Assembly: GCA_001794905.1 (NCBI GenBank)
Contig: MGLW01000033.1
Location: forward strand, 1-13,523
Reading direction: 5' to 3'
Length of the DNA: 13,523 nucleotides
Origin: Chlamydiae bacterium RIFCSPHIGHO2_12_FULL_49_11
GTDB taxonomy: Bacteria > Chlamydiota > Chlamydiia > Chlamydiales > 2-12-FULL-49-11
Below the pieces are notes generated by a model that worked only from the letters and a program-made list of their open reading frames with translations, was not told the DNA's origin and ran no database searches. How positions within the stretch are numbered: the stretch's first letter is position 1; each line of letters begins with the position of its first letter. A program made the position numbers and the translations under genes. Positions 1 to 13,523 of this stretch are shown here, piece by piece.

Positions 1-40
1 GAGTTCTTTGGTAAATTGAAACAAAATTTCCTCAGTTCGG

Positions 41-568
41 TTACTCACAACATATTCGACGATTTACGCAACAATGCCGTGCCGAAGTGAGATAGATAGT
101 TCCCCACAGGCCTACCTCGTTTCTGGTTTTGATCAGATAACCGACGCGCGCCCTCAGTTGTGACAGGTTGGGATCTAAACCGAACGCACCGAAGTTTTGG
201 TTGACCATCCAGTCGTAGTCGATCCCGACATTGAAACCGCCGGAAGAGGGAGTATGACGGTAGAGACCAACGGTAAAAAAACCTTCGCCTTCGGGACTTG
301 TGGAGCTATTTGAAATACCGGAACCGCTGCCGTACCAGTTGTAAATTCCGTACGAGCCTGCCAGTTGTAATCCGCATCCTTCCGCATGACAAGGAGAAGA
401 AAGGGCGACATTGAAACCGCCGAAAAGGCCGGTATTCCCCGACCAGCTGCCGTTTGGAATCCCGCGGAAGTACTCGTAACCAGCAAGAACTTCCGCGCCG
501 ACACAAATGTTAGGTATCGCACTCCAAATGCGTGATAGTAAGAAACACAAGGTTAAAAGCGCTCTCAT
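41..568 (-). CDS. Secreted outer-membrane beta-barrel-like hypothetical protein (DUF6666/inverse-autotransporter-barrel-like), probably C-terminally truncated
   Basis: Signal-peptide-like N-terminus (MRALLTLCFLLSRIWSA). Gly/aromatic amphipathic strands (GLQLAGSYGIYNW, GFFTVGLYRH, GFNVGIDYDWM, QLRARVGY, NEVGLWGT). Ends abruptly in an atypical Cys-rich tail, RHCCVNRRICCE. Confidence 0.6.
   Translation of the reverse strand: MRALLTLCFLLSRIWSAIPNICVGAEVLAGYEYFRGIPNGSWSGNTGLFGGFNVALSSPCHAEGCGLQLAGSYGIYNWYGSGSGISNSSTSPEGEGFFTVGLYRHTPSSGGFNVGIDYDWMVNQNFGAFGLDPNLSQLRARVGYLIKTRNEVGLWGTIYLTSARHCCVNRRICCE
226..422. repeat. Exact 17-bp direct repeat CGACATTGAAACCGCCG at 226-242 and 406-422
   Basis: Read directly from the sequence. 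The copies are 180 bp (60 codons) apart and both encode GGFNV in the minus-strand CDS. Confidence 0.85.
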
Positions 569-614
569 CGCTTTTAGCTATAACAATATCAATATTTTTT
601 TTACAATCCAGAAT

Positions 615-1565
615 ATGCCTTTCTGGATTCTATTTCCCGTATTGCTTTTGTGTGGCGAAAGGATTTCAGATATTGTGCAGCTCACTTTCCCCGGCATGGG
701 ATTTAGCCGCGCAGGAGAGCCGTATTTTTCCCCCGACGGGCTTACGGTTGCATTTCAGGCGACCCTGTTTGGGGAAGAAAGTTACCAGATATATGTAATG
801 GGCCTTGCGGAGTTAATACCTCGCCGAATCAGTACCGGAAGCGGCACATGCACCTGCGCCTACTTTAGGCCTGACGGGAAAAAAATCATCTTCGCATCGA
901 GTCATTCCGCTCCCGAAGCTGCATCGCTGTCCCCCTCCTCGGTCACAAACGGGAGATACAAGTGGCATTTTACTCCATACATGAATATTTACGAGTCGAA
1001 TTCCGACGGGAGCGAGATGAGGCCCCTTACTAGGGGAGCGGCCTATTCGGCAGAGTGCTCATATGCTCCCGACGGCACGAAGATCGTATTTGCAAGCAAT
1101 CGGGACGGGAACATGCATATTTATGTGATGGATGGAGACGGCGGCCATGTGCGGAGGCTGACCCGAAAAGAGGGGGTGTATCACGGCGGCCCTTTCTTTT
1201 CGCCGGACGGTACGAAAATCGTGTTTCGTGCCGATTATGATGCACCCGATCGATTGCAACTGTACATCATGGACGCCGACGGGTCCAATCTCGAAAAACT
1301 TTTCGATGACCCCTATATTAATTGGGCGCCGACGTGGCATCCGCGCGGCAATCATATCATCTACACCACGTCTAGGCATGGTCACGACAGGTATGAGCTC
1401 TATTTGCTTGATCTATGTACAAGACAGCAATACAGGGTGACCGATAGTCCCGGTTTTGACGGTCTTGCCTCGTTTAGTCGGGACGGCACAAAGCTCGTGT
1501 GGACGTCAAAACGCAGTAGCGGCGCCTCACATATATATCTTGCAACCATCGAGGTCCCTCCATGA
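615..1565 (+). CDS. TolB-like / PD40-repeat beta-propeller protein with N-terminal signal peptide
   Basis: Repeated PD40 motifs (FSPDGLTVAF, FRPDGKKIIFAS, YAPDGTKIVFAS, FSPDGTKIVF, WHPRGNHIIY, FSRDGTKLVW) with IYVMDxDG linkers. Start moved to ATG 615 (MPFWILFPVLLLCG), because the 507 start overlaps the divergent gene. There is no TolB N-terminal domain and no tol-pal context, so it is not called tolB. Confidence 0.85.
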   Translation: MPFWILFPVLLLCGERISDIVQLTFPGMGFSRAGEPYFSPDGLTVAFQATLFGEESYQIYVMGLAELIPRRISTGSGTCTCAYFRPDGKKIIFASSHSAPEAASLSPSSVTNGRYKWHFTPYMNIYESNSDGSEMRPLTRGAAYSAECSYAPDGTKIVFASNRDGNMHIYVMDGDGGHVRRLTRKEGVYHGGPFFSPDGTKIVFRADYDAPDRLQLYIMDADGSNLEKLFDDPYINWAPTWHPRGNHIIYTTSRHGHDRYELYLLDLCTRQQYRVTDSPGFDGLASFSRDGTKLVWTSKRSSGASHIYLATIEVPP

Positions 1566-2956
1566 GAACATTATTTTTTTTCTTTTGTATGTATCTGCAT
1601 GCACAAAACCAGACCGATGCTTATTCCGATATTCTCGGTTCGGAGGCCGTTCCCTTCACGCTGAGCTTGGAAGCGGCTTCGTTCACTCTTGCTTCGGGAG
1701 TGCATAGTTATGTGCGTGCTGTGTATGACGGCAAGTGGATTCTGATAGGGGGAAGGACAAACGGACTTCATGGGTTTCAGGATAGTGGAAATTTTCCCGC
1801 ATCTTCGCAAAACGATCTTGTGCAAGTGGTAGACCCCTCGACCGGTACCGTTTGGAGCCGGCTCTTGACTGATCCCTCTTCCGGCCTCACACCCGAACAA
1901 ATTTATACGTTGAACGTGACGGCTGCACAAGGGTTTCAAGATAGTGATATGCTTTATATGATCGGGGGTTACGGGTACGATCCCGGACGGAATGAAAATT
2001 CGACGAAGTCTACGCTGTCTGTAATCCGTCTACCAGGACTGATCAAGTGGGTGATGAATACCGATCCGAGCGAGACGTTTGCAAATAATTTGCGCCAAAC
2101 AACGCATCCCCTATTGAAGGTGGCGGGGGGCCATCTGACGCGTGTAAACAAGCACAAGCCGGTTCTTCTCATTTTCGGGCAAGATTTTGACGGCAACTAC
2201 CTCGTCTCCTCAAACGGAGCCTATACACAGCAGGTTCGTGCTTTTCATGTGATTGATAACGGAAAAAGCCTGTATATCAAACCTTGTCCCATAGAGGCCC
2301 CTAATGCAAACTACCGGCGGCGGGATTTTCCTGTTGGGCCGATCATTTCGCAAAACGGTAAAGCACTCGATCCTTCGGTTGTTGTATGGGCAGGGGTCTT
2401 TACCACCATCGGGGATGGCTACTGGACCGTTCCCGTGTCTATCCTTCCGCATGGTGTGACGGCCATGGCTGATCCGAACGGAAGCACCACGTTCCGGCAA
2501 GGGATGAATATTTATAATGCGGCGACCTCGGGACTATTTTCCAAAAGTGAAAGGGCGATGTACCAAATATTTTTCGGGGGCATTTCGTATGTGACTGTCA
2601 GCGACTCTATGTTTTCGACCGATTCGGAGTTTCCTTTTATCAATACGGTGACGGCGACCCGTATCGATAAGAGCGGCAGTGTCACGCAACACCTGCTCTC
2701 TTCATTCCCGACAATCTTGCAAACAACCGTTTTTCCCGGGCAGCCGTTCCTCTTCGGAGCAGAAGCCTGGTTTTTTCCTGCCTCCGGGGTGCAACTCTTT
2801 CCGAGTGGCGTCATTTCCCTGGACGATCTAGGAGCCGGCCCGGTCGTTGTAGGCTATGTGGTAGGAGGAATACAGTCAAGGGTCCCCAACACGAGTTCTA
2901 TGTCCGAATCGGCCGCCTCTGCTTTCGTTTTCCGTGTGACAGTGGAGAAGAATTGA
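1562..2956 (+). CDS. Secreted hypothetical protein, Kelch/galactose-oxidase-like beta-propeller
   Basis: 464-aa ORF with a signal peptide (MRTLFFFFCMYLHA-Q). Recurring hydrophobic-GG motifs (WILIGGR, LYMIGGY, KVAGG, IFFGG, YVVGG). ATGA overlap with the upstream stop suggests translational coupling. Confidence 0.7.
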   Translation: MRTLFFFFCMYLHAQNQTDAYSDILGSEAVPFTLSLEAASFTLASGVHSYVRAVYDGKWILIGGRTNGLHGFQDSGNFPASSQNDLVQVVDPSTGTVWSRLLTDPSSGLTPEQIYTLNVTAAQGFQDSDMLYMIGGYGYDPGRNENSTKSTLSVIRLPGLIKWVMNTDPSETFANNLRQTTHPLLKVAGGHLTRVNKHKPVLLIFGQDFDGNYLVSSNGAYTQQVRAFHVIDNGKSLYIKPCPIEAPNANYRRRDFPVGPIISQNGKALDPSVVVWAGVFTTIGDGYWTVPVSILPHGVTAMADPNGSTTFRQGMNIYNAATSGLFSKSERAMYQIFFGGISYVTVSDSMFSTDSEFPFINTVTATRIDKSGSVTQHLLSSFPTILQTTVFPGQPFLFGAEAWFFPASGVQLFPSGVISLDDLGAGPVVVGYVVGGIQSRVPNTSSMSESAASAFVFRVTVEKN

Positions 2957-3101
2957 TCGGCCACTTTTTTTCTGCTCCGAGTCAGAGGCTCTAACTACTT
3001 TGCTTAAATTTTTTTCATCTCATGAAGATTGACTCTTAAAATGGTCCATTTTGCTTATTGTAAAAAAATCTAAACACCGTGTAAGATCTTTGGCTAATTA
3101 A

Positions 3102-5192
3102 GTGGAGGATCGTGAAGCCTTGAATACAAAATCAAAATATAAAGTCATTCTTACTTGTATCTGGTCTCTTTTATTTTCAACTTCTTTTTGTGCGCAGAAT
3201 ATCTTGAATCACCTTGATTTTTCTTGTTATCAAGTGGCTTCTCATATTCCAGGAATTGATGCAGTGTTTGTTATTCAGCTTGAAGAGAATGAAAAATTAT
3301 CTGCGTTGCACGAAGAACTGCAACAACATGACGTTCAGGTGTTTGATTACAACAAATTTCAGAAAATCCCGGAAATAGTGCTGACGTCCTATTGCTCTTC
3401 TATTGTCTCTCCTTTTTTATTGACGGAGATTTTAAGTCATTTATCAATTTATCAATATTGTTTAAATCAGGGTATTAACCGAGTGCTGATTTTAGAAAGC
3501 CATGCCTCTCTTATGAAGGATCCCAGAGAACTATCTCAGTTATTAACTACACTTAATGAAAAAACACGAGGATACTGGGATGTTTTGTATACAGACAGCG
3601 ATTTTCACCACCCACAAACCGGATTACCTATTGTACCTAACCTTCATTATATACCTAAGAACAAGAAGGCATTTTTGCCGGGTATTTCCAAAGTTTTTTG
3701 TCGCTATGGCGCTGCTTCATTCGTTATTTCCAAATCAGGCATGAAGAAAGTGTTACAGTACTTTCAAACCCGATGGGACAATCTTCCATTTGATCAAATA
3801 TTGTTTCGAATTCCCCGTCTCTATATTTATGGAGTGGATACGGATATTATTACCAATCGGTATTCTACAAAGCCTTCTGAAAATGTCCATCTAGAAAAAC
3901 TTAAAAAAAAGGAAAAACTTTATCAGACAGGAAATGAATTTTGGATAGATCCGGTTCATCTTCTTACACATGATAGATTCGATGCTGCGGCTAAATATAT
4001 TTATGCCAAATACCAATTAAAGCACTATCGAACGCAATGGCATGTTGATTTATATAAAAAGCATCTTGAAAACTGGATCAGTTTCTATAATACAGAGCCC
4101 TTAAAAATAGGATTCCCGGCATTTCTTTCTGCTTTTAACACACTTATAAAAAGTTTGCAGAACAAAAGGTTTGATCCAACTTATCCTATTGATATCAACA
4201 ATCTTGGACTTGCTTGCAACGGCTCTCATAGAATTGGCACTTGTTTGGCTATGCAAATCCCTGTAAAAGTCCGTGTGGAAAGTGGAGAAGGATCTCCTTC
4301 AATGACGGCTTCTGCTTTTAGAAACTTGTATTCCTTAGAGGAAAAATATTTGGACCATATGGCTTATGAATATGCCAAACTCAAAGACAATACAGTTATT
4401 GTAAGCCTTTTTCCTGCAGGATATCAGTTTCGTAAAGAGGTTGAAAATATTCTTAACAAGTACGGGACAGTAGTACATGATAAAGATATTTGGTTAACTG
4501 AGAGCGGTTGTCTAGAATATATACGTCTTGTGTATAATGGCGAGTGGTGGACTGGTTCTTATTTGGATAATTTCCAACATAGCAAAGCGAAGGCGGCTTT
4601 GTGCTTTCCTCGAGATCTTAGGGAGAACAGCCCTGTAAAAGTGTATCTCTATGAGTGCGAAACTGAAGCGATAGCAAGAGTTGCAAAAGAGGCGGTGCGC
4701 ACCCTATGTAATTATGGAAATGAGTCTGTTCATATTAACAATAATCATAATCAGACAAAAATTATTGCTGCTTCCGTATTTAATGAAAACAGCATTGCCT
4801 TTATGAACAAAAAGAAGCTGAATATACATCCTCAATTCCATCAGTATATGAAAAATCTTCATGCATTTATTGGGGAAAATCCTATTGATCCCGAAGAGAT
4901 CTGTATTGATACCGGCTGTGTATTAGCAGCATATGGGCTTAGAGATACTAAAGATATTGATGTTATACATAAGTGTCCTTTACCGTCTACTTATCAATCT
5001 TATAATGTAGATTCTCATAATCCTCATTTGCATCATCATAGTAAACCTTTAGATGAGATCTTGTTTAATCCTGAGAATCATTTTTATTACCAAGGGATCA
5101 AATTTGTTTCTATAGATCTTGTAAGAAAAATGAAGTGGGATCGGCATTCAGAAAAGGATCTCGTAGATATAGAACTGATAGACGCTCTTTAA
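3102..5192 (+). CDS. Multidomain protein: degenerate GT25-family glycosyltransferase + ParB/Srx-like domain + middle alpha/beta domain + C-terminal Pol-beta-type nucleotidyltransferase-like domain
   Basis: GT25-like motifs: IDAVFVIQL, LSHLSIYQ, RVLILE, WDVLY, RYGAASFVISKSGMKKVL, LPFD. ParB/Srx-like NGSHR at 4218-4232. NTase-like TGCVLAAYGLRDTKDID at 4911-4961 and terminal KDLVDIELI. The true start may be TTG 3120, 11 nt after GGAGG (3104-3108), giving the signal-like MNTKSKYKVILTCIWSLLFSTSFCA. Confidence 0.75.
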   Translation: MEDREALNTKSKYKVILTCIWSLLFSTSFCAQNILNHLDFSCYQVASHIPGIDAVFVIQLEENEKLSALHEELQQHDVQVFDYNKFQKIPEIVLTSYCSSIVSPFLLTEILSHLSIYQYCLNQGINRVLILESHASLMKDPRELSQLLTTLNEKTRGYWDVLYTDSDFHHPQTGLPIVPNLHYIPKNKKAFLPGISKVFCRYGAASFVISKSGMKKVLQYFQTRWDNLPFDQILFRIPRLYIYGVDTDIITNRYSTKPSENVHLEKLKKKEKLYQTGNEFWIDPVHLLTHDRFDAAAKYIYAKYQLKHYRTQWHVDLYKKHLENWISFYNTEPLKIGFPAFLSAFNTLIKSLQNKRFDPTYPIDINNLGLACNGSHRIGTCLAMQIPVKVRVESGEGSPSMTASAFRNLYSLEEKYLDHMAYEYAKLKDNTVIVSLFPAGYQFRKEVENILNKYGTVVHDKDIWLTESGCLEYIRLVYNGEWWTGSYLDNFQHSKAKAALCFPRDLRENSPVKVYLYECETEAIARVAKEAVRTLCNYGNESVHINNNHNQTKIIAASVFNENSIAFMNKKKLNIHPQFHQYMKNLHAFIGENPIDPEEICIDTGCVLAAYGLRDTKDIDVIHKCPLPSTYQSYNVDSHNPHLHHHSKPLDEILFNPENHFYYQGIKFVSIDLVRKMKWDRHSEKDLVDIELIDAL

Positions 5193-5247
5193 ACATGGCC
5201 TTTTTTAGAGGGGGCAGGGCAAGGTCAAACTATATGAGTTTTGTTCA

Positions 5248-5285
5248 AAAAATTACCAGAATTCCTATAAATGCTGGGAATTTTT
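5248..5285. promoter_or_regulatory. Imperfect inverted repeat AAAAATTACCAG-N14-CTGGGAATTTTT (possible operator or weak terminator)
   Basis: The arms at 5248-5259 and 5274-5285 are complementary at 11 of 12 positions. It lies in the intergenic gap between the fusion gene and the kinase. Confidence 0.3.
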
Positions 5286-5370
5286 AGCAGTTTTGCATTC
5301 AGGTTTTATAACCCATTGCAGATAATCGGAAAATCGGGGATTGTTGGGATGGTAAAGGGAAGGCAGGGTA

Positions 5371-6396
5371 ATGGAGCCGATCTCATGGATAGGTGCCGGC
5401 GAAAGAAGTCGGGCGGTGGTTCCTCAGACGAGGGCGGCGGGGGAAGAATATTGTGAAGCGCTCGCAAGGCGCTCTTTAGCCTTGTGGAGAACGGAGGCGC
5501 GGACGTTGGCCCGCGCAGCACCGGTGACGATCATCCAAGGCACGTCGTCTGTCGGGAAATCTTCGCTGATTGCTGCGATGCGTGCGAGTAACGCAGAGTT
5601 GCGGGAGCTTGGAGTGGATATTTTGGGCCATCAGAGAGATTTGGACTATATTAAGACCCAACATCCCCAAACTTATGCCCTCTTGGATGCGCTCCTGATT
5701 CCAAAGGAAAGGCAAATGCATATCCTCCACGCAGTACGAGGTGGGGTATTCCACTTCAAGCCAACCGTAACAAAGAGCGAAAGAGAGGATACGGAGCGGC
5801 GAGCGAGCATAATAGCAGATGAAGTGGCGCGGGCAGCAGGCATAGGGAAAGAGGATATCGACCATGTCATGCTGGATAAGGCTATGACATATGCATTGGG
5901 AAATATCTCCGTCGTTTTCGACATTTTAAATATTGAAAGAGTGTTTGCGCATCATTTGGGTAGGATACCTCTCTGCATCGCGCTTATCTTCTGTCCCCTC
6001 GATACGCTAGTGGCCCGTATTCAAAGAAGGAACCGGGAGGCGCTACGCCAGCAGGATATGAGTGAAATCCGTCCCGACGAATCGCCCCTGTTACAGCTGG
6101 GAAAGATTTTTCGTCCCAAAACGGCGCCGGATGAGAAGATCCTCTTTTCCATCACGCGAAAACAATTGATCGAGGCATTCAATGTCCTTTTCGAGGAAGG
6201 GGCAAAGATAATCCATGCTTCATACAGTGCTGGCGAGAGAGAAGAAAGACTCGATAAAGTCATGCGTGCGCTTGGCTTCATCAATTCATCCATCAAAGAG
6301 TTACACTACACCCCGCGCTTCAACGGCTACGATTATGTCATCGATACGAGTGTGACAGATGTAAGGGGCGCTGCAACAATTCTTGTCAGAAAATAA
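5371..6396 (+). CDS. P-loop small-molecule kinase, chloramphenicol phosphotransferase (CPT)-like / NMP-kinase fold, with insertions
   Basis: Walker A IIQGTSSVGKS at 5530-5562 (CPT-type GxSSxGKS), lid motif IFCPLDTLVARIQRR and C-terminal YDYVIDTS, all typical of CPT-like kinases. Purine-rich sequence upstream of the ATG. Confidence 0.7.
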   Translation: MEPISWIGAGERSRAVVPQTRAAGEEYCEALARRSLALWRTEARTLARAAPVTIIQGTSSVGKSSLIAAMRASNAELRELGVDILGHQRDLDYIKTQHPQTYALLDALLIPKERQMHILHAVRGGVFHFKPTVTKSEREDTERRASIIADEVARAAGIGKEDIDHVMLDKAMTYALGNISVVFDILNIERVFAHHLGRIPLCIALIFCPLDTLVARIQRRNREALRQQDMSEIRPDESPLLQLGKIFRPKTAPDEKILFSITRKQLIEAFNVLFEEGAKIIHASYSAGEREERLDKVMRALGFINSSIKELHYTPRFNGYDYVIDTSVTDVRGAATILVRK

Positions 6397-6545
6397 TTTA
6401 CTATCTGAGATCCCATTGAAAAAGAGCAAATGAAAGAAAAGGGTCACGCAGAAGAAGCTATTGCTTCAGAATCTTCTGGAGTCGCAAAATCTTTTTCAGA
6501 GACTTGGGTTAAATAGATATCAGCCCCCACTTTGATCTTAACGTC

Positions 6546-8342
6546 CTAGAAATATTTTCCGATACGAAATAGACCTTCGTTTGTGACCGATTGAACTCCG
6601 TAAAACCCTTGATAAAGAAGAGAAAGCGACCAGTTATTGTTAAAGATAAAATCGATTTCAAATAAAGGCACAATGAAATTTTGTACACGTGTCAATGTTT
6701 CGACGGTAATGGTTCCGGTTGCTCCCGACAAACCGGCTGTGATTTTTCCGGTATTGAAGGGGGCTACGTTTTGATAGCTGAGCCCTTCTTTGACAATCAA
6801 AAGACCTATTTTTTTATAGTGGGTTTGATAACAAACGATTCCTGCTTGCGAAATCAGCATCGACGCGAATTTTTTCTTTACTTCATAATCGAATGCATTG
6901 GTTCCATGTTCATCGTAGGCTGGCTGAAACGTGAGGACGTAATCGAGCATTACAAAAGGTTCGATTCTGCCCCAATCAAAATTCAGGTCAACGCCTCCTC
7001 CGATGTGCGGGGTAAGAGATCCAGATACGTAGCGGCTCTTGGTTGTTCCCGAGTATCCTAAAAAGGAAATGTTGCGTTGGGTTTCCGTTTGGTTCGCAGT
7101 AGCCCAGAGCTGACCTTCGAAAAACCCGTATTTGAAACACATTTGACCATAGAGGGATGCGGCATACATATTAATGAAGCTTTTCCCCTGGCAGTCCTGG
7201 TTATGCACCGTGTTATACAAGTAGGCAAAAGAAATGCCGCCTTGTGCTTTGCGACTTAAGAAATAGTCGTAACCTAAAAGACCGCCTGCAGTAATAGTGT
7301 TAAATCCCGGATCTCCTTCCTGCGGATTTTGATAGGAAAATTCCGAAAGGGCGCTTGACCAAACGCCACGATGGGTATTTTCGCCCATTGGAGCAAACCG
7401 CAGAGACGATTTTTTTTCATAGCCGGTCGATGCACTTGTCCGGTTTGCTTTGTTATCTAAAAACGCCGATTTTGAAGAATGTTCGTACGGAGAATGTGAA
7501 AAAGTGCGCCCGGGCGAGAAAACATAGCGGGACTCTTCCAGAAGTGCAGTAGCTGCCGTATTGTAATTTGCAGCCCAGTTTAGAAGCCTCTCGTCGCCCA
7601 TATAATTCGATACTGTAGTGGCAAGCAGCTGCATCGCGCTTTGTGCCGTGTAGGTTGCAAATTCATTGCGGGAAGGATTGATGCGTTGTGCAGCAACGGT
7701 AAGGCTCGGATCCCACATGTTTGCTAGCAGCCCGTACACAGACCGTAAAAAGACGGTACCTCTATTTTCGATGATGTGTAAAAGCGCGCTGAGTGCATTT
7801 GGTGCATATTGTGCTGAATCGTGCAAAGTTATTATGAAGGAGTAACCATAATTTGTGTTACCTGTAATTGCGCCGGTAGCAAAAAAACCGGGAATGAGTG
7901 TTGATGAAGTGTCCCATTCGTATACATTGTATGTCAGTTTGGATTCATCCCCGTAGATCCCATAGAGGGCGGTTACGAGGATATAGCTAAAGCTCAGATT
8001 GTTACCGTAGTTCGAGCCGGAACTTAGGTCGAATGCACTCGACGTGCTGATCACAATCGTACCGCCATTAATTATGAAGGTGAACCCGGGATTGAGAAAC
8101 AAACTTGATGTATTGGCAACATAGCCGGAGGGGGCGACGGGCCAAGCCGTAGAATTCACCCACATAGTGGAGTTGGAATCCATTGTGATATTCTGGCTCC
8201 ATTCGAAAGTTTCAAAGGGATCAGCATCATACGTGAAGAATATGGGATAATACAGGCCATCAAAGTATGCGCCCGTTAAAAAATAATCCCATGCTGAAAG
8301 ATGGCATGCTATGATAATAAAAAAAATTCTCAGATATTTCAA
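6546..8342 (-). CDS. Autotransporter (type V) outer-membrane protein with short passenger and C-terminal beta-barrel
   Basis: Signal peptide MKYLRIFFIIIACHLSA-W (TTG start). Ser/Thr/Asn-rich passenger. Barrel motifs GVWSSAL, GGLLGYDY, YAASLYG, TQRNISF, IEPFVMLDY and a C-terminal beta-signal ending RIGKYF. Confidence 0.85.
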   Translation of the reverse strand: MKYLRIFFIIIACHLSAWDYFLTGAYFDGLYYPIFFTYDADPFETFEWSQNITMDSNSTMWVNSTAWPVAPSGYVANTSSLFLNPGFTFIINGGTIVISTSSAFDLSSGSNYGNNLSFSYILVTALYGIYGDESKLTYNVYEWDTSSTLIPGFFATGAITGNTNYGYSFIITLHDSAQYAPNALSALLHIIENRGTVFLRSVYGLLANMWDPSLTVAAQRINPSRNEFATYTAQSAMQLLATTVSNYMGDERLLNWAANYNTAATALLEESRYVFSPGRTFSHSPYEHSSKSAFLDNKANRTSASTGYEKKSSLRFAPMGENTHRGVWSSALSEFSYQNPQEGDPGFNTITAGGLLGYDYFLSRKAQGGISFAYLYNTVHNQDCQGKSFINMYAASLYGQMCFKYGFFEGQLWATANQTETQRNISFLGYSGTTKSRYVSGSLTPHIGGGVDLNFDWGRIEPFVMLDYVLTFQPAYDEHGTNAFDYEVKKKFASMLISQAGIVCYQTHYKKIGLLIVKEGLSYQNVAPFNTGKITAGLSGATGTITVETLTRVQNFIVPLFEIDFIFNNNWSLSLLYQGFYGVQSVTNEGLFRIGKYF

Positions 8343-8432
8343 ATCGCAGCCGGTATGAAAAATAAGGCTATTATGATACTATCTAAAAAAAATGCAAATC
8401 AATTTTTCAAGTTGCGAAGGGGCGGGCGTAGT

Positions 8433-8819
8433 ATGTCGTTGAAATTCAAAATGTGTGTCGGATCGATGGCGCTCTCCATGCTGGCGGCAGATGCCTTGCA
8501 ACGCTATGGTATGGTGATCCGCGTAAAACCGGAGATGGTCGCGGAGTATAAAAGGCTGCACAGTGACGTATGGCCTGAGGTGCTTTCTATCCTGGCTAGG
8601 CATCATGTGCGAAATTATTCCATTTTCCTGGCCGGCGGCCTCCTGTTCGGGTACTTGGAATACGATGGAGAAAATTATGCTCGTGACATGAAGGAAATTG
8701 CGGACGAAGAAATCACAAAAAGCTGGTGGAAATTAACCGATCCTTGCCAGGAGCCGTTCGGCTCGGTGAAGGGTAAGGAATGGTGGGCCCCCATGGAAGA
8801 AGTGTTTCATATGGACTAA
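8433..8819 (+). CDS. rhaM: L-rhamnose mutarotase family protein (RhaM/YiiL)
   Basis: Family signature EYKRLHSDVWPEV...RNYSIF...LFGYLEY...WW...MEEVFHMD. The start is uncertain (ATG 8433, ATG 8451 or TTG 8496). The 8301 start overlaps the divergent autotransporter and is rejected. Confidence 0.88.
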   Translation: MSLKFKMCVGSMALSMLAADALQRYGMVIRVKPEMVAEYKRLHSDVWPEVLSILARHHVRNYSIFLAGGLLFGYLEYDGENYARDMKEIADEEITKSWWKLTDPCQEPFGSVKGKEWWAPMEEVFHMD

Positions 8820-8882
8820 ATACCGAGTGCTTGATAAAAAATTCCGAATCCAATAACTGTCAGGTAAAGTACGGAGTAATTC

Positions 8883-9257
8883 ATGAAATCGAAAAAACGT
8901 TTGCATGTTGTAAAAGTTGTTCTCAGGGTGATCTCCATCCTCTTGATGGTATCGGGAACTGTCCTTTTCATCCTTGCTCTTACCATTTCAGGTCAAGTGG
9001 AAGAGGGGAAAGGAAAAGCGGATAAGGCGCAGAAGAATGTGAATACGGCAAGGCAGATCACATCCTCGAGTAGCTATACGAAAGATATCGGAGAAGCGGC
9101 AACAGACCCGATTCAACAGAAGATCAATGCGGGACGCCGCGACATTAAAAAATATGGCCAATTGGTACAAGTTTTTTACATCGTCGCCATCTGTACGGTC
9201 GGAACGGGCGTGCCCCTCTTTATCATCAGCTTTTTTCCCCGAAGAAAGAGAAAATAA
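8883..9257 (+). CDS. Small hypothetical membrane protein with two TM helices
   Basis: GGAG SD at 8873-8876. Basic N-terminus, TM1 (VISILLMVSGTVLFILALTI), charged helical loop, TM2 (VFYIVAICTVGTGVPLFIISFF) and basic tail RRKRK, consistent with the positive-inside rule. Confidence 0.75.
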   Translation: MKSKKRLHVVKVVLRVISILLMVSGTVLFILALTISGQVEEGKGKADKAQKNVNTARQITSSSSYTKDIGEAATDPIQQKINAGRRDIKKYGQLVQVFYIVAICTVGTGVPLFIISFFPRRKRK

Positions 9258-9280
9258 CTCGAAATTAGGCATTTCTTGAG
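9258..9280. terminator. Weak hairpin between convergent genes
   Basis: CTC-GAAAT-taggc-ATTTC-tt-GAG with A-rich flanks, which read as a U-rich tract after the stem on the minus strand. The stem is weak. Confidence 0.2.
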
Positions 9281-9300
9281 AAAAAGAAAATGACCGGATA

Positions 9301-9576
9301 TTATGGGTTTCTTGCTTGAGCGAAAAATCCGAGGGCAATGCTCACGGTCCATCCGCTCAGAGTGATGCTTTCTTCCCAGCTATGCCCTTGATATTGAGTG
9401 AGAGAGTACGTTGCTGCTCCCAAAAAGCAGCTTACGGTAAAATGAAAAACTTCGACAATGACATCATCAGAGCAGTGGTGCACAGCGTGAATCACACTTC
9501 GACCGGTATCGGACAGAGTCCTCTCCATCCGAAGGATGTGATCATAAATCCAAGACATAGGGTGAACCATTTCCAT
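9301..9576 (-). CDS. Small hypothetical protein with two hydrophobic C-terminal segments
   Basis: 91-aa ORF that fills the gap without overlap. Preceded by a promoter-like TTGCAA-17-TATATT ending 7 nt before the ATG. No family recognised. Confidence 0.5.
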   Translation of the reverse strand: MEMVHPMSWIYDHILRMERTLSDTGRSVIHAVHHCSDDVIVEVFHFTVSCFLGAATYSLTQYQGHSWEESITLSGWTVSIALGFFAQARNP

Positions 9577-9583
9577 GGCGAAA

Positions 9584-9612
9584 AATATACTTGATTTTCA
9601 TGCTTTTTGCAA
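9584..9612 (-). promoter_or_regulatory. Putative sigma70/sigma66 promoter TTGCAA-N17-TATATT
   Basis: -35 at 9612-9607, -10 at 9589-9584, ATG at 9576, no SD. Confidence 0.45.
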
Positions 9613-9615
9613 GAG

Positions 9616-10005
9616 TTAACATCCAGAGCCTGAGATAAGCACGGAGGGAACGAGGTCATCCGTGTTCAGGATGTAGGTGGTATCAGGGGCGATCTGAATC
9701 CAGCTTGTGTGCAGATCCGGGCTTTCTGAATCTTTTGTCCAAACCAGTACGCGGAAGTAGGCTGCTTTCAAAGTAGATGAAATGGGGACTTTTCCCCGGG
9801 TCTGAACCGGTTGCAGGGAGTCGGGGTTTTGCTTCATGCCGTGCATGAGGGCAATGTTATCGTCTTCCACTTCTTTGGCAGTGCCGGCCCATTGGATTGC
9901 CATTTCCGACTTTGGGTCGGGAGAAGGATACGCGGTCCGGTTGTCGAGAACGATGTTTTGTGCAAGACAGAGTGAGGTTGCCAGGAGAAGTAGCAGCATT
10001 TTCAT
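9616..10005 (-). CDS. Small secreted hypothetical protein (beta-rich)
   Basis: Clear signal peptide MKMLLLLLATSLCLA-Q. ATGA overlap with the amidase stop at 10002-10005. Confidence 0.7.
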   Translation of the reverse strand: MKMLLLLLATSLCLAQNIVLDNRTAYPSPDPKSEMAIQWAGTAKEVEDDNIALMHGMKQNPDSLQPVQTRGKVPISSTLKAAYFRVLVWTKDSESPDLHTSWIQIAPDTTYILNTDDLVPSVLISGSGC

Positions 10006-11189
10006 TCGAGGGTTTTTCCTTCTTGAGGGGTGCAGCGGGCATTTTCATTAATTTTGGGAGGTGTAAGAGGGTACTTTCCGCCGGCGCATAAAGTTTGTGT
10101 TTTGCCAACGCCGAGGAACGCTTTTTTGGGGATGTGGACGGTGACATTTTTAATCACGTTGACCGCTTCGGCAATCTCGAACTTGCCGATCATGCTCAGA
10201 AACTGGTAACTTTCCTGGGGGGACAACCCTTGGGTGCGCCCCAAGAAATCAATGGCATTTCGTGCTGCGATTTTCATTGCTTCAAAGAGGTCGCTGTGAA
10301 GCCCGGTGATCATCCAGTGGGTCGCATTTTCAATGATCGGCCATGTAAAGGCGTCGGTGCCGTTTCGCTTTGTTTTGTCGAGAACTCCTTGGGCTTTCAG
10401 GTCTTTATGAACAAAAAATTGCAGAACGATGGCTTCATAGGCGGTTTCCAGGGCGGTGACGTCGATTTCTCCCTCGCTTTGCATCGCGTGGGAATCACCC
10501 GTCCAGACCAGGGCTCCTTTGTGGAAAACGGGAACGAAAAGTACAGAGCCTGCCTGGAGTTCTGGTTGGTCCAGATTGCCGGCAAAGGGACCGGGCGGCA
10601 CCGAATTAAACTCTCCGTCGACCGGTCGGCCCATCACTTTTGGCAGATCTACAGGCCATTCGTTTGGCCAATCCGGGGGAGGGCAGGTAGCAATGATGCC
10701 CGGGAAGGGTTTGAGATGGAAGCAGACACCTTTTGCAAATTCAGTCGTGTTGTTTTTTTTATCGAACTTGAAATATTTGATTCTGGGCTTTGTAAATTCG
10801 GTTAAAATCCCTTGCGTTGGACTGAGGAAGTTATAACCCCAGTCGCTTAACCTGATTTCAAGCACGCGGATTTCGAGCACATCGCCGGGCTCTGCGCCTT
10901 CGATATACACGGGCCCGGTGAGGGAATGCATTCCGCGCCTTTTTTGAATGTCGTGCTTGATATAAAATTGTGCTATGTCGGCCGGAGTGGTTTTGTTGAA
11001 CACCATGGCGTGCAAACAACTGTTCCATGTTTCCAGAGATACCGTATCGCCGGAGTGGATTTTTACCACCGGCGGCTTGTTGACGGTGAAAAGGCCGAGC
11101 GTTGTCGTTTCGGAAGTTGCGGGCACGCGAAACGTTTCTCCGACAAGAAATGCGATCGGCATAACGAAGAAGAAAATACGTCGATCCAT
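10002..11189 (-). CDS. Acetamidase/formamidase (FmdA/AmdA) family protein with N-terminal export signal
   Basis: Family motifs HSLTGPVYIEGAEPGDVLEIRVL, PFPG, PPGPFAGNLD, GSVLFVPVFHKGALVWTGDSHAMQSEGEIDVTALE, AMKIAARNAIDFL. AGGAG SD just upstream of ATG 11189 favours this start over 11201. Confidence 0.9.
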   Translation of the reverse strand: MDRRIFFFVMPIAFLVGETFRVPATSETTTLGLFTVNKPPVVKIHSGDTVSLETWNSCLHAMVFNKTTPADIAQFYIKHDIQKRRGMHSLTGPVYIEGAEPGDVLEIRVLEIRLSDWGYNFLSPTQGILTEFTKPRIKYFKFDKKNNTTEFAKGVCFHLKPFPGIIATCPPPDWPNEWPVDLPKVMGRPVDGEFNSVPPGPFAGNLDQPELQAGSVLFVPVFHKGALVWTGDSHAMQSEGEIDVTALETAYEAIVLQFFVHKDLKAQGVLDKTKRNGTDAFTWPIIENATHWMITGLHSDLFEAMKIAARNAIDFLGRTQGLSPQESYQFLSMIGKFEIAEAVNVIKNVTVHIPKKAFLGVGKTQTLCAGGKYPLTPPKINENARCTPQEGKTLE

Positions 11190-11228
11190 TGCTCCTCTCA
11201 TATATTTTTGAGGAAATATGATGCAAGA

Positions 11229-12479
11229 TCAAAATAACGCAATGAGTCGCATTGTAAGGGCGGATGTGTTGGAGACGGTAGGGGCATTTCCGGGATTGGG
11301 AATGTAACTGAGCACAAATTGAAAGTAGGTCGATTTGTGGAGCTGTCCCTGGTAATAACTTTGTACCATGAATTCGGAGCGTCTTTCAAAGAGGCGGTGA
11401 TTTAGTTTTGACCATGCCATTCCCAACCCGAGCGAGTCATTGGGCCGTTTCGGGATGATAGCAAACGCGGTCAGGCCAAGGCCTCCGTAAAGAGTCACAT
11501 CGAGTGTTTTCGAATTGTTCCAGCCAAACTGGAAAAAGCCGGACAGGTTTCCCTGATTCACAGAGGAAGAATCTCCGGTCCAGAGGGCTTCTGAGCCGAA
11601 GGAGTAAATGCCGCCCGTACCGTTTTCCTGCTGCACTCCGGTTTGCAATCGTCCCGATTGGTACCATCCTCCCACGGCAAAAATGCCGGGTTTACGTCCG
11701 GCCCAGCCATGGCCGACTTCCATGATGGAAAAATAGTACCCGTTAAAATGGGGTCCGGTCAGTCCGGTTTGAACGCCGCGTGCCACGTTGCCGTCAAAAA
11801 AGCCGATGTTGACATAGTCTTGCCTTTTTGGGGCAATCGTAGCAACAACTCCGCAAACCGAGTTATAATAGCCTCCGATGGCACCGAGCAGGGTGGAGTT
11901 AACGAAGATCGGCGTATAAATGAGCCCGCTCACCGATGGGATTGAAACAGCCGGATGCATTGTCGGCACCGGTTTGGAGACGTTGTTGAAGTGGTATGTG
12001 GGCACGGTTTTCCCGATGCGGATGCTCAGCTTGTCATCGAAAAATCCTTGTCGAATCCAGAGTTGATATAGTTCCGAACGGTTTAGGGGAGGATCGCCCG
12101 GAAGGCTGTTATAGCCTTGGACAAGACCCGCATCGGCATTTGTCGGCTGCCCGTTAAATTGGAGAAATTCCATGCCGAAAAAACCGCCTTGCCACCGGAA
12201 AGCTTTGTTTAAATCAAGGGATAAATCAAGAATCAGAAGGCTATTGCCCGTCCAATGACCCTTTGCTACGGCCCCGTGTATGAGGGCGTTGCAGTCGCCC
12301 ATCCAAAGGCCGCCCAGACGGAAACCTGACGGGGGAGGTAGGTGTAAAAAGTTGCCGAGTGCTCCGGTACCGACGAGGACGTTTACGGCGCCCGGGTTTC
12401 CGCTGATGCCGTAACTCGACTCTTCAGCAGGCAGGAAACTTGCCGTCCATAGTAAGAAAAAAATAGCCGAAGCTTTCAC
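11229..12479 (-). CDS. oprB: Carbohydrate-selective porin, OprB family
   Basis: Signal peptide (GTG start). Motifs LDLSLDLNKAFRWQGG, ELYQLWIRQGFFDDKLSIRIGK, RPNDSLGLGMAW, EFMVQSYYQ, QFVLSYIPNPG, and a terminal Phe. Confidence 0.85.
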   Translation of the reverse strand: MKASAIFFLLWTASFLPAEESSYGISGNPGAVNVLVGTGALGNFLHLPPPSGFRLGGLWMGDCNALIHGAVAKGHWTGNSLLILDLSLDLNKAFRWQGGFFGMEFLQFNGQPTNADAGLVQGYNSLPGDPPLNRSELYQLWIRQGFFDDKLSIRIGKTVPTYHFNNVSKPVPTMHPAVSIPSVSGLIYTPIFVNSTLLGAIGGYYNSVCGVVATIAPKRQDYVNIGFFDGNVARGVQTGLTGPHFNGYYFSIMEVGHGWAGRKPGIFAVGGWYQSGRLQTGVQQENGTGGIYSFGSEALWTGDSSSVNQGNLSGFFQFGWNNSKTLDVTLYGGLGLTAFAIIPKRPNDSLGLGMAWSKLNHRLFERRSEFMVQSYYQGQLHKSTYFQFVLSYIPNPGNAPTVSNTSALTMRLIALF

Positions 12480-12540
12480 AACACATTATCTAAAATTATA
12501 ATTCTTTTTTCTACAATCGAAAACGTCTTTTACCGTGACA

Positions 12541-12569
12541 TTGACGAAGAAGTGGCATTCAGGTATCCT
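12541..12569 (+). promoter_or_regulatory. Putative sigma70/sigma66 promoter of rlmN, TTGACG-N17-TATCCT
   Basis: -35 at 12541-12546, -10 at 12564-12569, ATG at 12579, no SD. Confidence 0.55.
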
Positions 12570-12578
12570 TTTTCCATC

Positions 12579-13523
12579 ATGGATAGATTGCTTGCTTTTG
12601 ACCTGGCTCTTACCGATTGGGAAACATGGGTTCTCAAGGAAGGCTTTCCCCGCTTTCGTGCCAAGCAGATTTTTGAATGGATCTATCAAAAAAATGTTCT
12701 CGATCCCGACTCTTTCACTAATCTTTCTTTGCAAGACAGAAAAAGGTTGAAAGAAGCTTTTTCCTGGGAACCTTTTACCATTGATTCGGAGCTTCTCTCT
12801 CAAGACGGTAGCCGGAAAGTTCTTTTGAAAACAAGGGATAACCTCCTTATTGAAATGGTGATCATGCCGTACCACAACCGTATTACGCTGTGCTTGAGCA
12901 GTCAGGTGGGGTGCAAGATGGGGTGTACCTTCTGCCAGACCGGGAGGATGGGGTTGAAACGGAACCTTTCCTCGGGAGAAATTGTAGCCCAGATACTCAT
13001 TGCCAACCGCCTCCTCGAGGACCTCAAGATCACGAACGTCGTTTTTATGGGGATGGGGGAACCGCTCGATAACTATGATGCGACGATTAAAGCTTGCAGC
13101 ATCATGATTGACCTGGAAGGGCTCGGTCTTTCCAAAAATAAAGTAACGATCTCCACTTCGGGTCTTGTTCCCGAGATCGAGCGGCTCGGCCGGGAACTTC
13201 CGGTCCGCCTTGCCATATCATTGCACAATGCAGACAATGAAAAACGGAGCAAGCTGATGCCGATAGGGCGAAAGTACAGTCTGGATGCCTTGAAAAAAGC
13301 GCTTCTGAAGTATCCTGCCTCTGTGCGCTACGGCATTACTTTTGAATACGTTCTCATTGAAGGTGTGAATGACGCTCCCGAAGATGCAAAAAATCTGGTC
13401 CTGTTTTTGCACGGTTTGCCGGCCAAAGTGAACTTGATTCCGGTGAATGCTTTCCCGGGGGTCGATATCCGCCCTCCCACCGATGAGCGTATCCGTACTT
13501 TCCAAAGCTATTTGTCCGAGCGT
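12579..13523 (+). CDS. rlmN: Dual-specificity 23S rRNA (A2503-C2)/tRNA methyltransferase RlmN, radical SAM; 3' end lies outside the window
   Basis: Translated by hand (absent from the ORF track): MDRLLAFDL...FRAKQIFEWIYQK...TLCLSSQVGCKMGCTFCQTG (CxxxCxxC)...NVVFMGMGEPLDN...TISTSG...LAISLH...TFEYVLIEGVND...KVNLIPVN. The frame stays open to the window end. Confidence 0.95.
   Translation, partial: MDRLLAFDLALTDWETWVLKEGFPRFRAKQIFEWIYQKNVLDPDSFTNLSLQDRKRLKEAFSWEPFTIDSELLSQDGSRKVLLKTRDNLLIEMVIMPYHNRITLCLSSQVGCKMGCTFCQTGRMGLKRNLSSGEIVAQILIANRLLEDLKITNVVFMGMGEPLDNYDATIKACSIMIDLEGLGLSKNKVTISTSGLVPEIERLGRELPVRLAISLHNADNEKRSKLMPIGRKYSLDALKKALLKYPASVRYGITFEYVLIEGVNDAPEDAKNLVLFLHGLPAKVNLIPVNAFPGVDIRPPTDERIRTFQSYLSER

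Follow-up and report, generated by a model that had tools for sequence, protein, structure and literature searches.

Glycan enzymes that join a transferase to a tailoring domain are a known kind. Of the modules that concern us here, nucleoside diphosphate kinases (NDKs) carry phosphate on a histidine, and nucleotidyltransferases with a DxD site hold Mg2+ at the hydroxyl acceptor. SerK, SbnI and sulfiredoxin (Srx) use the ParB/Srx fold as an ATP-binding catalytic or kinase module (PMC12704722), and the terminal mannose of its chain is first phosphorylated and then methylated by WbdD (PMC3482155). Here we describe a fusion gene in a 13,523-nucleotide stretch of DNA, referred to throughout as the window (positions 1-13,523 of the forward strand of contig MGLW01000033.1, assembly GCA_001794905.1, Chlamydiae bacterium RIFCSPHIGHO2_12_FULL_49_11). 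Its product combines a signal-peptide-like N-terminus, a GT25 glycosyltransferase domain and a C-terminal unit of three lobes. This tailoring unit differs from those of the known enzymes and is covered by no profile library or solved structure. The fusion probably serves to modify a sugar chain, on the surface or of the host, by an as yet undescribed route.

The tri-lobed unit and its family

An earlier note, made from the DNA letters without database searches, had read the open reading frame (ORF) as a four-module fusion of GT25, ParB/Srx-like, NDK-like and minimal nucleotidyltransferase modules. The ORF is present on the forward strand and open over 696 codons from a GTG (Table 1). The motifs quoted from it were all recovered: RFDAAAKYIY at residues 292-301, PIDI at 362-365, NGSHR at 373-377 (H376, R377), KEAVRTLCNYGNESVHINN at 529-547 (H544), TGCVLAAYGLRDTKDID at 604-620 (D618, D620) and KDLVDIELI at 685-693. 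The four-module layout proved essentially right as an architecture, and we hold the domain architecture given here with high confidence. The part that did not stand is the independence of the three C-terminal modules, which form one block (aa ~282-695) in homologues. Their limits, previously drawn at about 280-400, 430-570 and 600-696, were corrected from the secondary structure of an AlphaFold2 (AF2) model. That model of aa 271-696, computed with 46 standalone relatives, has a predicted local distance difference test score (pLDDT) of 95.4 and a predicted template modelling score (pTM) of 0.94. On the strength of these values, the three lobes are modelled as packing rigidly into one obligate unit of ~415 aa.

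In a HMMER scan with aa 271-696, 1987 cluster representatives pass E ≤ 1e-3, 614 of which also pass E ≤ 1e-30, and nearly all of the matches listed span query residues ~12-425 in a single stretch. Among the best 150 of the 1987 representatives, 79 are standalone, 64 have extra domains and seven are partial; in the 64 fused carriers the extension is C-terminal (22), N-terminal (15) or on both sides (27). Pfam at E ≤ 1 matched only GT25 on the whole fusion protein, NCBIfam gave no match on the whole protein and PHROGs none on aa 271-696, and at E ≤ 10 the 47 unit members have no Pfam or NCBIfam family in common. Sequence searches of the Protein Data Bank (PDB) returned only chance tankyrase matches (E > 1) with the fusion protein and nothing with the profile of 47 unit members. 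RefSeq labels proteins that carry the unit 'hypothetical protein', and one UniRef name (P0171) reads 'ParB/Sulfiredoxin doma...'. A literature search that did not extend to subscription journals found nothing relevant on this architecture. In the main text of a 2025 survey of ParB-CTPase fusions based on PF02195, the words glycosyltransferase, nucleotidyltransferase, NDK and polysaccharide do not occur; the supplements of the survey could list such fusions. As far as these searches reached, nothing contradicts the note, whose author knew of no characterised protein with such an architecture, and judged by them the tri-lobed unit is an undescribed, widespread family.

Residue conservation was counted across 170 non-chlamydial members of the unit. 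Two of the motifs in the earlier note, GxHR (G374 in 162 of 170, H376 in 163, R377 in 160) and DxD (D618 in 164, D620 in 163), are conserved among these homologues. The NDK-type residues H544, R533 and Y478 are found in 164, 165 and 166 members, respectively; K529 is found in 168, N563 in 164, G612 in 169, K667 and K678 in 167 each and D689 in 166, and R614, H639 and D651 of lobe 3 are also conserved. Judged by the alignment, the motifs of the unit exceed chance. The stretch HINNNHNQT of the window corresponds to HINDTHEET in the family, with N547, N548, N550 and Q551 in place of D, T, E and E. Of the 18 close chlamydial homologues whose sequence spans the site, D618 has been lost from six (P0012, P0014, P0015, P0017, P0018 and P0019). 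Deletions around H639 occur in these D618-less proteins. Three of the six are also without D620, and all six retain GxHR. In this part of the chlamydial clade the nucleotidyltransferase-like lobe appears, from the alignment, to be decaying.

The NDK-like assignment of lobe 2, which the note had regarded as its weakest, turned out to be the best supported of those for the three C-terminal lobes. Foldseek comparison of the unit model with the PDB listed 40 matches, comprising 32 named NDKs, two NDK-like RP2 entries and six axonemal-complex chains. All of these matches are weak (E 6.6e-3 to 6e-2, template modelling (TM) score by target up to 0.60). In BFVD, a phage model named 'NDK-like domain' matches lobe 2 with a TM by target of 0.68. 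Against an alignment of ten NDKs taken from Escherichia coli and plasmid records, hhalign gave E 4.3e-4 and a probability of 34% over 109 columns; against E. coli Ndk alone the probability is 1.3%. In the alignment, H544 pairs with the invariant histidine of the NDK motif NGTHGSD, R533 with the arginine of GTLR, Y478 with the NDK tyrosine and N547, which is an aspartate in the unit family, with the aspartate of NGTHGSD. No Pfam NDK match was found in the fusion protein or in the 47 unit members. For this reason, and because the NDK lysine is replaced and the Kpn region shortened, lobe 2 is classed as NDK-like and not as an NDK; by sequence and model it is a lobe in which the phospho-histidine context is retained.

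For lobe 1, the ParB/Srx assignment is supported by a conserved NGxHRxAA motif, and the profile and fold alignments are weak. In the window the motif reads NGSHRIGTC (373-381); hhalign lays it on ILDGSRRRASA of P1 ParB with E 5.4e-3 and a probability of only 6.7%. A BFVD model named 'ParB-like nuclease domain' matches the lobe at E 2e-3 with a low TM, and a structure row of the Atlas relates aa 277-431 weakly to C2185-like_N (TM 0.34/0.48). PF02195 (ParBc) has no match at E ≤ 10 in the 47 unit members.

The Pol-beta-type nucleotidyltransferase signature is hG[GS]-x(9-13)-[DE]h[DE]h. Lobe 3 fits the minimal nucleotidyltransferase signature, with a family consensus of [SG][SGA]-x12-DhD, and follows an alpha-beta-alpha-beta order in the AF2 model. 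The Pol-beta call made earlier is thus upheld for the motif and finds no profile or fold match to a known nucleotidyltransferase. The hhalign probability is 0.1% against the kanamycin nucleotidyltransferase ANT(4')-Ia and 0.4% against the LicD protein encoded at one unit locus (L045). PF04991 matches neither the fusion protein nor the 47 members, and among nucleotidyltransferase-family profiles the sole match is to DUF6036, in one of the 47 members at E 0.01. No nucleotidyltransferase is present among the fold matches listed for the PDB and BFVD; the PDB list is filled by NDKs for the unit model and by GT-A enzymes for the full-length model.

Table 1 Features of the fusion gene and of its surroundings, in window coordinates
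Feature	Position	Strand	Residues	Marks
Fusion ORF	3102..5192	+	1-696, from GTG 3102	stop codon 5190-5192
Sec-type signal peptide or signal anchor (putative)	3102..3194	+	1-31	...YKVILTCIWSLLFSTSFCA then QN; hydrophobic 13-aa window, Kyte-Doolittle 2.0 at aa 15
GT25 (GT-A fold) glycosyltransferase domain	3249..3866	+	~50-255	Pfam PF01755; DxD = D165-S-D167
Lobe 1, ParB/Srx-like	3927..4385	+	276-428	RFDxxAK (R292, D294, K298), Y318/H321, NGSHR (G374, H376, R377), YLDxMAxEY (D418)
Lobe 2, NDK-like	4386..4817	+	429-572	Y478, K529, R533, H544, N563
Lobe 3, minimal nucleotidyltransferase-like	4818..5189	+	573-696	T-G-C...YGLR...D618-I-D620, H639, D651, K678...K685-D686...D689
Low-G+C stretch	2950..5300	.		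~0.35-0.37 vs ~0.45-0.52 in flanks; coincides with the fusion gene alone
Secreted-looking protein	1562-2956	+	464 aa	signal-like N-terminus (MRTLFFFFCMYLHA...)
P-loop protein	5371-6396	+	341 aa	Walker-A
Autotransporter	6546-8342	-
L-rhamnose mutarotase	8301-8819	+

Fusion partners, gene neighbourhoods and distribution

Homologues of the C-terminal unit do sit in glycan loci, a point that the note had left to be looked up. Glycosyltransferase genes lie beside the unit in 27 of 29 examined loci, and are absent from that position in L021 and L045. The set consists of 27 of the 79 loci retrieved, picked for long flanks and named organisms, and two plasmid records. A role of the unit in glycan assembly is very likely.

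Pfam domains found in 36 multi-domain carriers are GT2 (22), FkbM methyltransferase (19), GT10 (9), GT25 (1) and GT7C (1); several have GT4 and TPR, one has a polysaccharide deacetylase and two have no Pfam domain. A methyltransferase is fused in 20 of the 36 fusion proteins, is fused or adjacent in eight of the 29 loci, and is the commonest partner in two-domain fusions, ahead of any glycosyltransferase. P0018, a close chlamydial relative, carries PF13578 (Methyltransf_24) besides GT25. The unit is also found in TPR-rich megaproteins. Unusual partners are a radical SAM domain, a GT-D-like domain and a polysaccharide deacetylase (L069:6906-9113, L074:6962-9277 and P0041).

ABC-transporter loci make up five of the 29 (L018, L059, L065, L073 and L075). 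In L018, L059 and L073 the unit gene directly follows an ORF with a Wzt_C domain, which in L059 and L073 also contains the ABC ATPase domain; we take this position to be the slot of wbdD in E. coli O9a. A position beside Wzt and methyltransferases suggests the tailoring or capping of a glycan. GDP-fucose genes or GT10 occur at L023, L029, L031, L065, L075 and in Ilyobacter. Compact GDP-fucose sets (gmd, manC or fcl, GT10 or other transferases, FkbM) enclose the unit in Neobacillus kokaensis (L031, 4332-10323) and Ilyobacter polytropus (L090, 2863-10419), whose units are standalone proteins (L031:6920-8257 and WP_013389097.1, respectively). Such sets around the unit are a hint of a link with fucosylated or 6-deoxyhexose glycans. 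At L045, a LicD-family protein is encoded two genes downstream of the unit. A Simkaniaceae metagenome-assembled genome (MAG) locus (L004, 1-11745) holds two GT25-unit paralogues (1149-3182 and 6167-8143), at least three further GT25 genes, four Methyltransf_24 genes and one weak FkbM-like gene. In the loci examined, genes for taking up or making a small substrate are not a recurrent feature next to the unit.

The GT25 assignment of the window protein was confirmed by Pfam: PF01755 matches aa 70-233 (E 1.2e-7, 32.2 bits against a cut-off of 24) and spans profile positions 20-198 of 199. The full-length AF2 model (pLDDT 86.9) has 28 Foldseek matches in the PDB at E ≤ 1e-3, the top-ranked being GT-A enzymes. 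The best GT25 fold matches are human COLGALT1 (PDB entry 9evj, E 3.4e-8) and a bacterial beta-1,4-galactosyltransferase (PDB entry 8xlz, TM by target 0.65). The 19 full-length relatives of the fusion protein, one of them from a Simkaniaceae MAG, are 39-61% identical to it; in 19 aligned sequences D165 is invariant and D167 is conserved in at least 90%.

In 20 of 20 chlamydial GT25 fusions the protein opens with a short basic stretch, after which comes a hydrophobic segment with small residues at its end. Most standalone non-chlamydial members begin directly at the first conserved block, and the same hydrophobicity is reached in only eight of 46. We read the N-terminus as a putative Sec signal peptide or signal anchor, which may be cleaved, and the chlamydial fusion protein would accordingly be an exported one. 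The GTG at 3102 overlaps a GGAGGA ribosome-binding site (3104-3109), from which an in-frame TTG at 3120 is spaced by 10 nt. The true start is probably this TTG, preferred because the N-terminus that it gives (MNTKSKYK, 690 aa in total) resembles those of homologues.

In a quick tree of 76 unit sequences, a sample without giant-virus or viral sequences, the window's unit groups with L001, L002, L003, L004 and L048, of which four are named Chlamydiota, with an SH-aLRT of 98; overall, Chlamydiota fall in three places. By this tree the fusion gene is at home in Chlamydiota. The low G+C content is no evidence of a recent import from outside the phylum, a reading that is unsupported, the unit lying inside the Chlamydiota clade.

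Atlas clusters of standalone unit members are labelled mostly viral, and BFVD contains structure matches to the whole unit in giant viruses (E 1.8e-15 to 4.5e-13). A tblastn search of 50,697 deposited phage genomes gave no unit match. Mobile-element genes (phage-type integrase with C5 DNA methylase, rve integrase and T7 tail-fibre N-terminal domain) lie by unit loci at L029 2651-6452, L038 4226-5482 and L074 9735-10712, and may explain the viral labels of the Atlas.

Around the fusion gene, the window encodes a PD40 propeller, a secreted-looking protein, a P-loop protein, an autotransporter, RhaM, a formamidase, an OprB porin and RlmN. The RlmN fragment shares 70% and 64% identity with proteins of Chlamydiales MAGs and 60% with one of a Chlamydiota MAG; one match at 64% bears the name Verrucomicrobia. 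The 341-aa P-loop protein downstream matches chloramphenicol-phosphotransferase-like P-loop kinases only below the threshold (E 3.4e-4, 20.9 bits against 22) and has no counterpart beside homologues at other loci. The 464-aa protein upstream has a hydrophobic N-terminus and no Pfam or PHROGs match. The autotransporter and L-rhamnose mutarotase genes are divergent, and the starts of their longest ORFs share 42 nt; one start is probably mis-set.

Proposed phosphotransfer and its alternatives

Our tentative reading, drawn from sequence, models and analogy and better called possible than probable, is that the unit is a glycan-tailoring phosphotransferase that acts through phospho-His544 and transfers phosphoryl to a glycan, and not a donor-making pathway. 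The GT25 part would add a hexose from a UDP-sugar onto a glycan acceptor. The ParB/Srx-like lobe would bind a nucleoside triphosphate (NTP) through GxHR, and phosphate would pass from the NTP to H544 of the NDK-like lobe. With the DxD of the nucleotidyltransferase-like lobe holding Mg2+ at the acceptor site, phospho-His544 would then donate to a hydroxyl of the glycan just made by the neighbouring transferase. The product would be a glycan with a phosphate-containing cap or side group, and in many relatives a fused or adjacent methyltransferase could then modify the phosphate group. The results themselves comprise the layout of the domains, the conservation of the three sets of motifs, the size of the family and its partners and gene neighbourhoods. 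We infer that NTP is used, that histidine is the phosphorylated intermediate, that a glycan is the acceptor and that the chlamydial protein is exported.

Several observations weigh against this phosphotransfer. In the hhalign alignment, the NDK lysine of 'IIKP' is replaced, aligning with F437, and the region of the Kpn loop is shortened, with a gap of 10 columns before the arginine. The window has N547 at a position where 162 of 170 members have an aspartate. No PDB fold match to the unit model reaches E ≤ 1e-3, and no solved structure fits the unit. A simple kinase needs no conserved DxD lobe, and nucleotidyl transfer may be the real chemistry. The loci were hand-picked (27 of 79), with long contigs and named organisms favoured; an ABC transporter is absent from 24 of the 29, and no methyltransferase is in view at 21. 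The window itself has no other glycan gene in the neighbourhood of the fusion gene, and no synteny links the neighbours of this gene to any other unit locus. An exported enzyme would also require NTPs and UDP-sugars outside the cytoplasm. Glycogen synthesis in the Chlamydia trachomatis inclusion reportedly depends on UDP-glucose. A possible precedent for extracytoplasmic glycan chemistry is the occurrence of that synthesis in the inclusion (PMC4829429).

In a broader form of the proposal, which we regard as doubtful but worth stating, the unit would be a new class of glycan-tailoring enzyme that relays phosphate through histidine onto finished chains, a second and unrelated solution to the capping or terminating task of WbdD, spread over some 2000 clusters in bacteria and giant viruses. 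The chlamydial form, joined to GT25 and a signal peptide, would make or alter a glycan beyond the bacterial cytoplasm, be it in the periplasm, in the inclusion lumen or in the host.

In a model that follows the earlier note, the unit would be a salvage pathway that makes the donor for its fused user: the ParB/Srx lobe would phosphorylate a small molecule or free sugar, the nucleotidyltransferase lobe would convert it to an NDP-derivative, and the fused glycosyltransferase would carry out the transfer; the NDK-like lobe, to which the note gave no part, would supply or regenerate NTP. All three nucleotide-handling motif sets are conserved, and the unit is fused to or beside many glycosyltransferase families, as a general donor supplier would be; free-serine kinases, moreover, exist among ParB/Srx folds (PMC12704722). 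We nevertheless consider this model unlikely. The unit is self-contained, occurring alone or fused to GT2, GT10, GT4 or methyltransferases, and is not tied to GT25, and neither a transporter nor a biosynthetic gene for a special substrate recurs beside it. The sugar-1-phosphate nucleotidyltransferases that are known have a different fold. A complete GDP-fucose route already lies beside the unit in L031 and in Ilyobacter, the commonest two-domain partner is a methyltransferase, and the location by Wzt and methyltransferases resembles tailoring or capping. The loss of D618 from six of the 18 close chlamydial homologues, with GxHR retained, also speaks against it.

The conserved DxD, R614, H639 and D651 of lobe 3 could instead belong to an enzyme of the LicD/fukutin/Stealth type, in which the nucleotidyltransferase lobe, acting as the catalytic centre, transfers a phospho-sugar or phospho-alcohol to the glycan from an NDP-linked donor to form a phosphodiester, and the other lobes bind the nucleotide part or the acceptor. 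GDP-sugar genes and GT10 accompany the unit (L031, L029, L065, L075, L023 and Ilyobacter), and L045 has its LicD-family protein nearby. This is quite unlikely, in that no similarity to LicD (probability 0.4%) or to any nucleotidyltransferase family is detectable, the conservation of the NDK-type histidine would be left unexplained, and some chlamydial paralogues have lost the nucleotidyltransferase site.

ParB folds work as switches driven by NTP (PMC12704722), and a unit of this kind could be a regulator resembling the ParB CTPases, one that determines chain length or serves as a gate for the exporter and the transferases beside it; the unit lies next to Wzt in three loci and is present in TPR-rich megaproteins. 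Three catalytic-looking residue sets kept at 94-98% across 170 members go beyond the needs of a switch, and make a regulator very improbable. A nucleic acid or nucleotide substrate (such as DNA or RNA ends modified in phages), with the glycan link secondary, is scarcely credible: the standalone Atlas clusters are mostly viral by label, one BFVD match is named mRNA capping enzyme and ParB, NDK and nucleotidyltransferase folds all handle nucleotides, but the deposited phage genomes contain no tblastn match, 27 of 29 bacterial loci are glycan loci and the unit is fused to glycosyltransferases. A link to the Campylobacter MeOPN transferases was considered and dropped, as no MeOPN pathway genes are present in any locus.

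Comparison with known systems

The unit sits in gene sets for O-antigen, exopolysaccharide and giant-virus glycans; its product would thus be a recurring, unannotated trait of microbial surfaces, one that matters for serotyping, phage receptors and glycoengineering. Should H544 carry phosphate, as the phosphotransfer proposal has it, an NDK-type histidine would be employed for the modification of a polymer. The chlamydial version raises a question about glycan chemistry that an intracellular bacterium would carry out beyond its cytoplasm.

The GT25 domain of the window passes the Pfam threshold for PF01755, has the GT-A fold and retains a DxD, in common with human COLGALT1 and the bacterial beta-1,4-galactosyltransferases of lipooligosaccharide. 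It shares only 16-17% identity with solved members, and is joined to a signal-peptide-like N-terminus and to a 415-aa C-terminal unit, the latter being absent from every solved GT25 protein.

The middle lobe resembles the NDKs in its fold and in the alignment of the histidine, arginine and tyrosine. It differs from them in the lack of a Pfam NDK match, the replaced lysine and the shortened loop before the histidine, and it is found only within the tri-lobed unit, never alone. Lobe 1 has NGxHRxAA at the place expected from the ATP-using ParB/Srx enzymes SerK, SbnI and sulfiredoxin, whereas the Pfam ParBc model misses it.

Predicted structures of three giant-virus proteins, from Catovirus (A0A1V0SAX2), Yasminevirus (A0A5K0UAL1) and Mimivirus LCMiAC01 (A0A481Z0W0), match the whole tri-lobed unit, and two of the three are named glycosyltransferases. 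The sequence identity is 15-18%, the partners are different (GT8 and Exo_endo_phos in Atlas clusters) and these fusions are also uncharacterised.

WbdD, the kinase and methyltransferase that terminates the O-antigen of E. coli O9a, has a eukaryotic-type protein kinase domain (PMC3482155), and its fold is unrelated to that of the unit. Most carriers of the unit, whose kinase activity is putative, lie outside ABC-transporter loci. The likeness would be one of functional analogy only: a putative nucleotide-dependent tailoring unit has a methyltransferase fused or adjacent at eight of 29 loci, and in three of the 29 the unit directly follows a Wzt_C ORF.

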